Source: Eledone cirrhosa (lineage: Eukaryota). Taken from it: a DNA stretch of 64,000 nucleotides. Position 1 is the first letter of the stretch, and each line of letters begins with the position of its first letter. This document shows positions 16,365 to 57,229 of the stretch, piece by piece. The stretch lies in contig OZ024751.1 in the NCBI GenBank assembly GCA_964016885.1, positions 40,920,001 through 40,984,000 of the forward strand, written 5' to 3'. Under the pieces are notes generated by a model that was not told the DNA's origin, did no database searches, and was given only the letters and a program-made list of their open reading frames with translations. Both the position numbers and the translations under genes were made by a program.

Positions 16365-16779
16365 GGAAAGTTATATTTAAATTGTTGGGTTACAACTAGT
16401 AAATATTTATAACTGATATAAAAGCACTCAACAAGTATTTGGAGTATATTTACGATATTAAATAAATGGAAACTATATTTATAAAACCATATTTATTTCA
16501 TTATATATATTTCAGGGATATCATATTAACAATATGTTATGCCTTCTTCAGACAAAATACAATATAGACAGTTTTATAAACAGTTTTATAACTGCCAAAT
16601 CAACTTTTCAAATACAAGTCGATGTTGAACGGTATGTCAAATCTATTTATTTATAAAACTGTCTATATTGTATTTTGTCTGAAGAAGGCATAACATATTG
16701 TTAATATGATATCCCTGAAATATATATAATGAAATAAATATGGTTTTATAAATATAGTTTCCATTTATTTAATATCGTA
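16365..16779. mobile_element. Hammerhead-bearing fold-back element 1 (PLE pseudo-LTR-like) inserted in (TA)n
   Basis: 130-bp inverted arms 16451-16580 and 16650-16779 with no mismatch seen, 69-bp spacer, tail hairpin at 16422-16445, TA tracts on both sides. Confidence 0.85.
16663..16743 (+). ncRNA. Type I minimal hammerhead ribozyme (mirror copy 16487-16567 on minus)
   Basis: CTATATTGTATTTTGT-CTGAAGA-[AGGCATAACATATT..AATATGATATCCCT]-GAAA-TATATA-TA-ATGAAATAAATATGG; stems I and II pair. Confidence 0.75.
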
Positions 16780-17439
16780 TATATATATATATATATATAT
16801 ATACATATGTGTGGGTATGTGTGTGTATGTGCGTGTGTATTTATAGTCACACACACACATACGATGTCCTCCACTCTTTGAGATCAATTAGAAAGCAAGG
16901 CACCACTATTGATAGTATTCAATGATAGAACTAAATCATTTGCTATGTCATTGTCTAATTAGTATTGAATGGTAATTAGCTGCTTGGTGTAGAGTGGTGG
17001 TGGTGTGTGTGTGTGTGTGGGGGGGGGGGGGGGTTCATTAAAGACACTATATTGCGTGACAACAACGGGACGAGAACCAACTATATATATATATATATAT
17101 ATATACCCCTCACATACACACATATATATATACACACATATACACATATATATATATAATTACACACACACACAAACACTAGTACGCACACACACGCACA
17201 AACACACACACACATATATATATATATATATATGTACACATACACACACACACATTCACATATATATATATATATATATATATATATATATACATACACA
17301 CGCATACACACATACACACACCTAAACACATACACACATACACACATACACACACATATATACATGCACACTTCACACTTTTATTGATACATTAAGCAAT
17401 CTGGTATGTAAGAGGGAAGTTTTTTTTGTGTGTGTAATT

Positions 17440-20130
17440 ATATATATATATGTGTATATGTGTGTATATATATGTGTATATGTGTGTATATATAAGTGTG
17501 TATGTGTGAGGTATATATATGTGTATATTTGTGTATATATATGTGTATATGTGTGTATATATATATGTGTGTATGTGTGAGGTATATATATGTGTATATG
17601 TGTGTATATATATGTGTATATGTGTGTATATATATGTGTGTAGGTGTGAGGTATATATATGTGTATATGTGTGTATATATATGTGTATATGTGTGTATAT
17701 ATATATGTGTGAGGTATATATATGTGTGTATGTGTGTATATATATGTGTATATGTGTGTATATATATATGTGTGTATGTATGAGATATTTATATGTGTAT
17801 ATTTGTGTATATATATGTGTATATGTGTGTATATATATATGTGTGTATGTATGAGGTATATATATGTGTATATGTGTGTATATATATGTGTATATGTGTG
17901 TATATATATATGTGTATGTGTGAGGTATATATATGTGTATATTTGTGTATATATATGTGTATATGTGTGTATATATATATGTGTGTATGTGTGAGGTATA
18001 TATATGTGTATATGTGTGTATATATATGTGTATATGTGTGTATATATATATGTGTGTATGTGTGAGGTATATATATGTGTGTATGTGTGTATATATATAT
18101 GTGTATATGTGTGTATATATATATGTGTGTATGTATGAGATATTTATATGTGTATATTTGTGTATATATATGTGTATATGTGTGTATATATATATGTGTG
18201 TATGTATGAGGTATATATATGTGTATATGTGTGTATATATATGTGTATATGTGTGTATATATATATGTGTATGTGTGAGGTATATATATGTGTATATTTG
18301 TGTGTATATATATGTGTATATGTGTGTATATATATGTGTGTGTATGTGTGAGGTATATATATGTGTATATGTGTATATATATATGTGTATATGTGTGTAT
18401 ATATATATGTGTGTATGTATGAGGTATATATATGTGTATATTTGTGTATATATATGTGTATATGTGCGTATATATATATGTGTGTATGTATGAGGTATAT
18501 ATATATGTATATGTGTGTATATATATGTGTATATGTGTGTATATATATATGTGTGTATGTATGAGGTGTATATATGTGTATATGTGTGTATATATATGTG
18601 TATATGTGTGTATATATATATGTGTGTATGTATGAGATATTTATATGTGTATATTTGTGTATATATATGTGTATATGTGTGTATATATATATGTGTGTAT
18701 GTATGAGGTATATATATGTGTATATGTGTGTATATATATGTGTATATGTGTGTATATATATATGTGTATGTGTGAGGTATATATATGTGTATATTTGTGT
18801 GTATATATATGTGTATATGTGTGTATATATATGTGTGTGTATGTGTGAGGTATATATATGTGTATATGTGTATATATATATGTGTATATGTGTGTATATA
18901 TATATGTGTGTATGTATGAGGTATATATATGTGTATATTTGTGTATATATATGTGTATATGTGCGTATATATATATGTGTGTATGTATGAGGTATATATA
19001 TATGTATATGTGTGTATATATATGTGTATATGTGTGTATATATATATGTGTGTATGTATGAGGTGTATATATGTGTATATGTGTGTATATATATGTGTAT
19101 ATGTGTGTATATATATGTGTATATGTGTATATATATATGTGTGTATGTATGAGGTATATATATGTGTATATGTGTGTATATATATGTGTATATGTGTGTA
19201 TATGTGTGTATATATATATGTGTGTATGTGTGAGGTATATATATGTGTATATGTGTATATATATATGTGTATATGTGTGTATATATATATGTGTGTATGT
19301 ATGAGGTATATATATGTGTATATTTGTGTATATATATGTGTATATGTGTGTATATATATATGTGTGTATGTATGAGGTATATATATGTGTATATGTGTGT
19401 ATATATATGTGTATATGTGTGTATATATATATGTGTGTATGTATGAGGTGTATATATGTGTATATGTGTGTATATATATGTGTATATGTGTGTATATATA
19501 TACGTGTGTATGTATGAGGTATATATATGTGTATATGTGTGTATATATATGTGTATATGTGTGTATATATATATGTGTGTATGTATGAGGTATATATATG
19601 TGTATATGTGTGTATATATATGTGTATATGTGTGTATATATATGTGTGTAGGTGTGAGGTATATATATGTGTATATGTGTGTATATATATGTGTATATGT
19701 GTGTATATATATATGTGTGTATGTGTGGGGTATATATATGTGTGTATGTGTGTATATATGTGTGTATATGTGTGTATATATATGTGTGTATGTGTGAGGT
19801 ATATATATGTGTATATTTGTGTGTATATATATGTGTATATGTGTGTATATATATATGTGTGTATGTATGAGGTATATATATGTGTATATGTGTGTATATA
19901 TATATGTGTATATGTGTGTATATATATGTGTATATGTGTGTATATATATGTATGTGTGTATGTGTGAGGTATATATATGTATATATGTGTGTATATATAT
20001 GTGTATATGTGTGTATATATATATGCGTGTATGTGTGAGGTATATATATATATGTGTATATGTGTGTATATATATGTGTATATATGTGTATATATATGTG
20101 TATATGTGTGAGGTATATATATATAGAGAT
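17440..20130. repeat. ~71-bp minisatellite built from TA/TG dinucleotides with a GAGGT anchor
   Basis: GAGGTATATATATGTGTAT recurs every ~70-71 bp; source of the 926-aa artefact ORF. Confidence 0.95.
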
Positions 20131-55318: not shown

Positions 55319-56849
55319 AAACTTTGCGCTGGGTTGCGGGAGGCTAAAGAAAACGAGGAAAGAAGACCTAAAATGAATCGGCATTGGAACATTGTGTAAA
55401 GTCTATGACTGATGAACAAGGATTGGAAGGATGTATCTGCCCTGACTGGGGATAGGAAATAGTTACATTAACCCCACTGACTGCCTCATGTGTCTCAAGA
55501 CGTACGAACTCCTGTGTCTAAGTCTAAATATAGTCATGTACATCGATTAAAAACAGCACCAGAATTGCGGCATTAAAATTTATATATCAACTCTAAGTTT
55601 GAAATTTTCTTTTCATAATTCTCTGAGAAAATGCGTCAGTGAATTATAAACACTGAGCGAAATTGACAGAACGAAAGAAAAAAATAGAAAAAACATGTGT
55701 GATCATGTTTCTATTGAAGGGTTTACATTAAATATTTCACAAAACAGAGATTATTATTATTATTATTATTATTATTATTATTTTTATTGAAAACACTGTA
55801 TTAAATCACATAAAAGTGCAATTGAATCAAAAATTCTATACGAACAAACAAGTAGCAGAGAATAAATAAATAAATAATTGACAGCAATATTTAGTATATG
55901 AAAATGAAGTCGTGGCTGACCGAATCAGTGGCGTGACGAATTAATTGTAGATGTTCGCAGTACTGTATTATATTCCAACAAAAGATGTACATCTGAACCT
56001 TATATAAAACGCATGTCTCATTCATATGTATTGGGTTGTAGCATAAACTCCCGCCGTCTTTTATTAAGAAGTTTTATAACAACGGCGGGAATTGTTACAA
56101 TCCAATATATATATATATATATGTGTGTGTGTGTGTCTGTGTGTGTGTAGAGAGAGAGAGAGAGAGAGAGAGAGAGAGAGAGAGAGAGAGAGAGAGAGAG
56201 AGAGAGAGAGAGAGAGAGAGAGAGAGAGATGCGTGTGTGAGTAAGTATCTACATATATAGAGGCAACTGGAGGATGTTTTCTTCTCACTCTGCGCAACGC
56301 AAGATCCTTTCTTTCTTCTTTCTACATCGTTATCACCCATCCTAGATGTCGTCTGTATGTGTCATTTATCTAACGGCAGGGAAACCGATCACAATATCGC
56401 TACCCGACATTATATCCATGTTTTCTTTCATCGGATTGTCTTTGTTCTTCCCTGAGGTATTAAAAACAAAATGTCGATTATATTCTATGTCTTGTCTGGT
56501 CTTTACTGTACGTGATACATCCTCAGGTATTTAAACACTAATTGCTTCGGTTGTTTGTCGTCTGTTTCTTCGTCTGTTTTTTGTTTTGTCTGACAATTAT
56601 ACTAAAACATACTAAAACAATTCCTCCAAGCGTGAAACCTATTATGATTTTGTAATTTTGCAACCCTGTGTTAATTTTTTTTTTTTTTCCACACTTACGC
56701 GGCCCACCTGCCATTGAAACCTGGATAACTACTCGGAATACGGATTACCAAGGATTAACCAGCCTACTGATTGTCGGACTTTGAACTATATATACATATA
56801 TATATATATATATATATATATATATATATATATATATATATATATATAT

Positions 56850-57229
56850 TCATTTAGGTTTGTTGGTTCACCACTGGATAGAACTGGTCATTCCGTATAG
56901 TCAACCTTGATGTAATATTAGGGAGAGCACTCGACGTAATGTAACTCACCCGTTTTCGTTTGTGTTGTTGTTGGTGGTGCGAGTACGGAGTTAATTATTA
57001 TAAAATAACAGGAGGTTGGACTGGTTTAATTCCTTAAAGGTTTATTATACTATGAACATTTCAATGACCGGGTTCTGTATGAATCCGTTGACATCATCAG
57101 GTATTCGGAAATTTATCCAACAAAGGAATATAATAATTGACACAATCCAAGGGGCTTGGATTGTGTTGTTCATAGTATAATAAACCTTTAAGGAATTAAA
57201 CCAGTCCAATCTCCTGTTATTTTATAATA
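56850..57229. mobile_element. Hammerhead-bearing fold-back element 4 in (TA)n
   Basis: 63-bp inverted arms 56996-57058 and 57167-57229; internal hairpin ACACAATCCAAG..CTTGGATTGTGT; tail hairpin 56925-56991. Confidence 0.8.
57047..57104 (-). ncRNA. Degenerate type I hammerhead ribozyme
   Basis: minus ATAC-CTGATGA-[..CGGATTC-ataca-GAACCCG..]-GAAA-TGTTCA-TA-GTAT; base of stem II is mismatched. Confidence 0.55.

Follow-up and report, generated by a model that had tools for sequence, protein, structure and literature searches.

The Hydra clade of Penelope-like elements (PLEs) is defined, in those sections of Craig et al. 2021 (PMC8557442) that treat it, by the motifs RWK, DKT, CxCx5C and CxxC/CxH, by a C-terminal GIY-YIG domain and by an endonuclease lacking the CCHH motif. 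The paper, in passages that include the legend of its Fig. 2, describes an inverted 5'-truncated copy, a one-sided tail and insertion into (TA)n with hammerheads in this clade. Among the Hydra elements in its supplement are one from octopus and one with an inverted 5' copy, and the origin of the inverted pseudo-long terminal repeats (pLTRs) and tails of PLEs is named in the text as an open question. Pairs of hammerheads on opposite strands, 100-700 bp apart, are reported in the relevant parts of Cervera and de la Pena 2014 (PMC4209133), and for the element Poseidon_Ac the corresponding sections of Frangieh et al. 2024 (PMC11167929) describe the tail as the stretch between two reverse-transcription start sites, with both strands of the target cut and extended. 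Four fold-back elements of this general build, here termed E1 to E4, lie in a 64-kb stretch of the Eledone cirrhosa genome (contig OZ024751.1, positions 40,920,001 to 40,984,000 of the forward strand; the window) and were compared with the genome as a whole (3.0 Gb searched). With a probability of about 0.93, E1-E4 are short 3' ends of PLEs, E1, E2 and E3 matching families with a Hydra-type reverse transcriptase (RT) and GIY-YIG endonuclease (EN) and E4 matching a 2.1-kb family without the corresponding open reading frame (ORF), the fold-back form being likely made during insertion. The overall layout is already in print, the new detail being a twin motif beside both fixed ends of the copies.

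Fold-back elements and their parent families

The four elements display a common architecture, which a sequence-only reading of the window had recognised correctly, including the positions of the ribozymes: (TA)n on both sides, inverted arms of ~63-170 bp, a tail on one side only and hammerheads predicted to cut after AUA. On both arms the ribozyme sense points outward, and on one arm the tail follows 3' of the ribozyme. In E1 (16365-16785) the tail-bearing copy is on the minus strand and the inverted tail-less copy on the plus strand, the arms occupying 16445-16580 and 16650-16785 (136 nt, 99%). The tail-bearing copy of E2 (28604-28970; fold-back 28607-28872) is on the plus strand and that of E3 (29218-29651; fold-back 29312-29644) on the minus strand. 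E4 (56850-57229, minus strand) has the shortest arms, at 56996-57058 and 57167-57229 (63 nt, 98%). The earlier description of the four as unrelated in sequence stands insofar as BLAST cross-matches between them are short (<=22 nt) and lie mainly around the ribozyme core, but it is too strong, since the tails of all four open with a common motif. The count of four leaves out at least one further fold-back of the same build (29669-29870). Each of E1-E4 represents a separate multi-copy family, in agreement with the proposal of several families within 64 kb, and the genome holds 496, 1844, 879 and 3344 first-look candidates for E1, E2, E3 and E4, respectively, 40 of which were scored for each.

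The ends of E1, E2 and E3 run into RT/GIY-YIG ORFs, as the earlier suggestion of PLE termini implied, and belong to autonomous families. The full-length E2 element (locus L152) starts with (TA)n, a 100-bp inverted arm and a partial tandem pLTR carrying the E2 hammerhead and tail. This tail continues into an ORF of ~750 codons, broken in L152, whose pieces carry YRDD, CNCx5C and YIG. A 2-kb 3' untranslated region (UTR) follows, then a second pLTR with its tail, 4540 bp after the first, and finally (TA)n. L193 has the same layout for E1, with a period of 3745 bp and an ORF of 52% protein identity to that of E2. For E3, L263 comprises the inverted arm, the RT/EN ORF and the tail, and in L257 the tail reads into the ORF start. 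Further full-length relatives are L192 for E1 and L195 and L196 for E2, and further ORF-bearing relatives of E3 are L262 and L264. A search from the RT side (38,497 first-look candidates; one of the 30 RT loci is the query's own) places E2 end sequence within 1.5 kb of 23 of the 30 RT loci, and at 9 of the 30 the sense tail reads through into the ORF.

A single ORF combines the RT with a C-terminal GIY-YIG domain, YRDD and YIG/YVG-type motifs being present in L152, L193 and L263, and L174 contains one open frame of 750 aa. The E1-E3 elements score between E 1e-32 and 1e-190 against a profile built from 94 long homologous ORFs. Among the homologs is one named from Argonauta. The frames of E1 and E2 contain RWR, and E1, E2 and E3 all have DKT instead of DKG, the homologs having RW[KR] in 74/94, DKT in 81/94 and DKG in 5/94 cases. 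The CxCx5C linker (77/94 homologs) and the CxxC/CxH motif flanking E and N (87/94) are found in L152, L193, L258 and L263, some with one residue decayed. As for the CCHH motif of the endonuclease, a single cysteine is seen by eye in the GIY-YIG core. In E1-E3 the pLTR hammerhead is in sense to the ORF and insertion is in (TA)n, and 5' truncation, a partial tandem pLTR, an inverted 5' copy and a one-sided tail, all features of EN+ PLEs, are present. The motifs RW[KR], DKT, CxCx5C, CxxC/CxH and GIY-YIG are those of C-terminal EN+ members of the Hydra clade such as Hydra-1_Obim and Penelope-13_HM, with which, in the portions of PMC8557442 concerned, the sense hammerhead, (TA)n target, inverted 5'-truncated copy and one-sided tail are also shared. 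By these motifs E1-E3 are assigned, as putative members, to autonomous Hydra-clade families. In contrast to the elements described in those portions, the units measure 3.7-4.5 kb with 3' UTRs of 1-2 kb, and the tails are ~80-145 bp long rather than the 30-40 bp quoted there. A PDB sequence search returned nothing useful.

Two fixed ends and a twin motif

Copies of each family share two fixed outer ends and differ in the inversion point, which varies from 0.25 to 3.8 kb. Whole-palindrome queries return look-alikes and hence a tail query was added for E2 and a single-arm query for E3, the E1 sample remaining biased to palindromes; 11 loci duplicating another locus or the window were excluded before the length counts, and two E2 loci are without a full tail. 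An inverted arm lies in the fetched flank of 18/28 copies found with the E2 tail (total length 248-1580 bp) and of 16/28 found with the E3 arm (300-1871 bp), and three E3 copies in longer fetches span 2.6, 3.1 and 3.8 kb. Central junctions vary between copies and often include short duplications. Of the tails, 155/166 overall and 133/141 in E1-E3 lead into (TA)n. A 5' end that looked fixed in E1 and E3 was discounted as a search bias beside pyrimidine-rich sequence. This variation of the inversion point, in families whose ends (E1-E3) adjoin RT/GIY-YIG ORFs, is the outcome for which the sequence-only reading had foreseen ordinary truncated PLE insertions, and its retrozyme-like class of palindromic RNA elements is not supported.

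The two arms of one insertion are closely alike, with distances of 0.015, 0.035, 0.029 and 0.047 in E1, E2, E3 and E4, respectively, and are about twofold more distant from the arms of other insertions (0.030, 0.062, 0.061 and 0.080); none of 2000 permutations in each family is as low, which fits one template or one source locus for both arms. The E1 family is very young, its copies being 99-100% alike. In contigs of two public runs (kind unrecorded), the depth of the hammerhead-and-tail region L193:8486-8743 is ~100-fold that of the ORF, as would follow from a large excess of short 3' ends over full copies, although contig depth does not equal copy number; an informative joint or end was looked for in these contigs and none was seen.

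A twin motif, RCTCC...GAGYGC, is common to all four families and accompanies both ends. Motif 1 (ACTCC...GAGTGCT) opens all four tails 52-60 nt after the predicted ribozyme cut, at 16423-16445 (minus) in E1, 28881-28908 (plus) in E2, 29270-29297 (minus) in E3 and, with an extended internal stem, 56926-56991 (minus) in E4. Motif 2 (GCTCC...GAGCGC) is found in read-through copies 90, 96, 90 and 144 nt beyond motif 1 (E1-E4), just upstream of the start codon. Judged by BLAST, the inverted arms end mostly from 8 nt before to 1 nt into motif 1 and the tails mostly 2-7 nt before motif 2, positions blurred by a few bases of TA-like sequence; the tail is also present in 2/41 inverted arms of E2 and 2/41 of E3. 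The stem of the motif comprises 4-5 bp, is nearly invariant and folds weakly, at -2 to -6 kcal/mol except in E4 motif 1. Compared with random columns, motif 1 is clearly over-conserved only in E3 (11/5000).

The motif extends to metagenomic relatives, of which 78 loci with related ORFs were fetched and the 60 with one continuous or long match were scored. A hammerhead lies within 600 nt upstream of the ORF in 17 of the 60, and the twin motif is present in 14 of these 17; in 300 shuffles the corresponding count averages 0.08 and never exceeds 1. In the full set of 78 loci, motif 1 occurs as 40 distinct copies, located 33-61 nt after the cut (25-75 nt searched). TA-terminated ends number 16, a read-through sister is available for six, and all six stop 0-9 nt before a motif. 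The outer pair is G-C in 39/40 metagenomic copies and A-T in 99/105 distinct copies of this genome, a swap that probably reflects a single two-sided change; because it counts as one event, support for a hairpin is modest. From these comparisons, the twin motif likely positions two starts of reverse transcription. No description of it was found in literature listings, in the text of the papers cited here or by a term search of the Craig supplement (PMC8557442). As set out in the pertinent sections of PMC11167929, Poseidon_Ac similarly has two fixed ends bounding the tail, an AT-rich target and mostly uncleaved templates. Its two starts share one AC-rich stem-loop inside the ORF, whereas here each end has its own copy of the motif, located in the 5' UTR ahead of the start codon.

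Hammerheads, the non-coding E4 family and further remnants

A descriptor combining stem I of at least 4 bp, a folded stem II, the core and NUH matches six sites in the window, all inside E1-E4 (+16679, -16551, -28710, +29552, -29404 and -57100), whereas 60 local dinucleotide shuffles average 0.07 sites and never exceed one. The stricter motif used in the sequence-only reading adds +28769, giving seven sites against a mean of 0.02 in 200 shuffles. E1 contains one hammerhead in the inverted arm (16671-16736, plus; core 16679, predicted cut after 16728) and one in the tail-bearing arm (16494-16559, minus; core 16551, predicted cut 16502). In E2 the inverted arm contains one (28652-28718, minus; core 28710, predicted cut 28660), and the plus copy (core 28769) has the motif but fails the descriptor. 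E3 again has one in the inverted arm (29544-29614, plus; core 29552, predicted cut after 29606) and one in the tail-bearing arm (29342-29412, minus; core 29404, predicted cut 29350), and E4 has a single one (57047-57104, minus; core 57100, predicted cut 57051). The cuts placed earlier at 16728 (plus), 29606 (plus) and 28660 (minus) are thus recovered by the search. Stem I has 8 bp in E1-E3 and 4 bp in E4, which, given the motif alone, arise by chance in 0.07% and 2.4% of flank pairs, respectively. The core CUGANGA/GAAA/NUH and the three stems that define a hammerhead are present, self-cleavage being a prediction. An Rfam scan of the window showed no hammerhead family among 150 of 169 matches listed, and its microsatellite-driven microRNA matches were disregarded.

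Like the minimal PLE hammerheads in the parts of PMC4209133 that describe them, these ribozymes are of type I with a long stem II and a very short palindromic stem III, and form opposite-strand pairs 100-700 bp apart. In contrast, stem I of E1-E3 is longer (8 bp) and no G10.1-C11.1 pair is seen by eye. The A-U pair of stem III and the AUA triplet also differ from the Hydra hammerheads listed in PMC8557442, mostly C-G and GUH. Because loop 3 is palindromic or nearly so, the hammerhead is expected to work as a dimer or aided by protein, and to have low activity as a monomer, palindromic loops of this kind going with dimer action and low monomer activity in the passages on them in PMC4209133 and the review PMC6765202. 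Among family copies, 12 of 1865 cells differ at core positions, compared with 1042 of 32484 at the remaining positions, and random sets of 12 columns are as low as the core in 462, 115, 317 and 31 of 5000 draws (E1, E2, E3 and E4, respectively). That the core differs less than the rest suggests that selection maintains it in the source elements.

Truncation at the ribozyme cut was rejected, as 0/166 sense copies start within 3 nt of it; the core is spanned by 147/166, a count biased by queries that mostly favour core-spanning copies. The absence of starts at the cut is in line with the Poseidon templates, mostly uncleaved at the hammerhead in the relevant part of PMC11167929. For a transcript of the entire fold-back a single long duplex is predicted, which encloses the core in E2 and the 3' portion of the ribozyme in E4, and the hammerhead of such stumps would be buried in it. 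In ~1 Mb of flanks (loci L001-L264) more than ten other hammerhead sequence types occur, with different stems and a palindromic loop 3 (e.g. L053, L063, L072, L092, L093 and L223).

The E4 tail continues into a ~1.9-kb body, the next pLTR following 2.0-2.2 kb on. In L259 three pLTRs stand in a row ~2.1 kb apart with the inverted arm at the 5' end, and L106, L259, L260 and L261 all contain head-to-tail, non-coding units with one type I hammerhead each. A query with the body gives 2060 first-look candidates. None of four E4 stretches matches the profile of 94 homologous ORFs, no conserved long ORF is common to 30 E4 bodies, and no match beyond 23 bp exists between the body and the E1-E3 elements. 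Because its ~2.1-kb head-to-tail unit is without an RT/EN ORF, E4 is the end of a non-autonomous passenger family with PLE ends. The term non-autonomous, previously applied to the elements at large, therefore holds for E4 only, and for a source that is a linear 2.1-kb tandem unit and no palindrome. RT/EN pieces near E4 copies (L101, L106, L202 and L222) were set aside as adjacent insertions, with microsatellite in between wherever the sequence was inspected. They are RT and GIY-YIG pieces of other Hydra-like families (L106:5784-7051 and L101:1120-1467 on the minus strand), suggesting repeated insertion into the same TA tracts. The E4 body also contains an internal duplication of ~350 bp with ~83% identity (L101:2193-2902).

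In its non-coding head-to-tail units, one hammerhead per unit and PLE-type end, E4 resembles the non-LTR retrozymes as characterised in the pertinent parts of PMC7229834 and bioRxiv 10.64898/2026.07.22.740005. Its unit of ~2.1 kb (2.0-2.2) compares with 51-972 bp in the latter and exceeds the short units (up to ~1 kb) that characterise them. E4 further differs from them in inserting with the inverted arm and tail typical of PLEs and in having a minimal rather than a canonical hammerhead.

The overlooked fold-back, E5 (29669-29870, minus), is folded inside its hammerhead and has motif 1 at 29740-29713, in its tail. It belongs to a very abundant TA-bounded family (79 matches in 55 of 264 fetched loci) and keeps only the GAAAC-stem III-GUC half of the hammerhead; related pieces in the window lie at 16195-16290, 25629-25712 and 61302-61419. 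The stretches 14854-15049 (plus), 29939-30058 (minus) and 15330-15560 (minus) have the same motif and end at (TA)n without a hammerhead, and are likely more strongly truncated PLE tails. Two repeat copies at 5727-5900 and 6310-6400, of a repeat also present in other loci, have CTGATGA close to a TA-rich end, and a hammerhead fold looked for in them was not found. Long minisatellite arrays occupy 50756-55290 (65-bp unit x 69) and 17443-20124 (71-bp unit x 38).

Probable origin of the fold-backs

Starting from the observed parentage, truncation, fixed ends and motif positions, the fold-backs would arise as follows. The endonuclease would nick the two strands of a (TA)n tract, and reverse transcription of the element RNA would be primed by each nick at one of two fixed sites. 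Priming a few bases ahead of motif 2 would yield the tail-bearing copy, and priming a few bases ahead of motif 1 the inverted copy without a tail. The two cDNAs would stop early, at variable points, and become joined head to head; the hammerhead, which lies 52-60 nt upstream of motif 1, would simply be copied along. At about even odds, the twin RCTC...GAGY hairpin is the cis-signal of the Hydra clade for the RT: an RT-endonuclease dimer would bind both copies on one RNA, prime both nicks and so make arm and tail in one event, and the same signal would mobilise E4 in trans.

A separate class of fixed-length, retrozyme-like palindromic RNA elements, copied as hairpins, would account for the many similar-sized copies returned by whole-palindrome searches (E3, 433-464 bp in 25/25), whose 5' ends often lie near one spot. 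This likeness in size is a product of the search, since tail or single-arm queries give 0.25-3.8 kb. Many copies have no inverted arm nearby, central junctions differ between copies and the burial of the E2 core or of the 3' part of the E4 ribozyme in the transcript duplex also speaks against it, which makes such a class highly improbable. Even less credible are DNA transposons resembling miniature inverted-repeat transposable elements (MITEs), in which the inverted repeats would be terminal and TA would be the target duplication. These would explain the inverted arms and the TA flanks, but on the tail side the repeats stop short of the terminus, a copy contains one parental end only, and 5'-truncated copies whose ends adjoin RT/EN ORFs refute them. 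A third account accepts PLE ends and takes the twin motif for a promoter, a translation or packaging signal or an endonuclease DNA site, with the ends set by TA-like microhomology. Each end does sit in a short AT-rich stretch, motif 2 is just upstream of the start codon, and the 4-5-bp stem is weakly folding and nearly invariant. AT-rich stretches are, however, widespread in these pLTRs, and yet the offset between end and motif is constant in four families, despite the differing spacing of the motifs (90, 96, 90 and 144 nt); metagenomic ends, 16 of which were examined, likewise lie near the motif in 6/6 with a read-through sister. This account is doubtful, although distinctly more plausible than the other two.

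Several points weigh against the derivation from PLE ends by priming on both strands. Pfam gave no RT or GIY-YIG match on the ORFs of this genome, its GIY-YIG signal is weak and limited to 2/16 alignment members, and PF00078 falls on 2 of 120 homologs among the matches listed; because Pfam support is weak, the naming of the domains rests mainly on motifs. The units of 3.7-4.5 kb exceed the <3 kb usual for Hydra, and no coding partner was found for E4. Conservation of the core by itself is borderline in E1 (462/5000) and E3 (317/5000), and that of motif 1 is not significant in E1 (1019/5000), E2 (375/5000) and E4 (2333/5000). The similarity of the arms within an insertion could also reflect gene conversion or two RNAs transcribed from the same source locus, and both-strand priming and the roles of the motifs are inferred from end positions and by analogy with the Poseidon element, which belongs to a different clade.

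E1-E4 are ordinary debris of a described retroelement clade and their importance is mainly one of annotation, as such stumps mimic MITEs and are very abundant in this genome. If the motif does act in trans, the 2.1-kb non-coding E4 family (~2000 candidate loci) would be an oversized retrozyme-like passenger. For the question of how inverted pLTRs and tails originate, a short clade-wide motif beside each fixed end offers a direct mutational handle, and the very young E1 family a natural system in which their formation can be studied.

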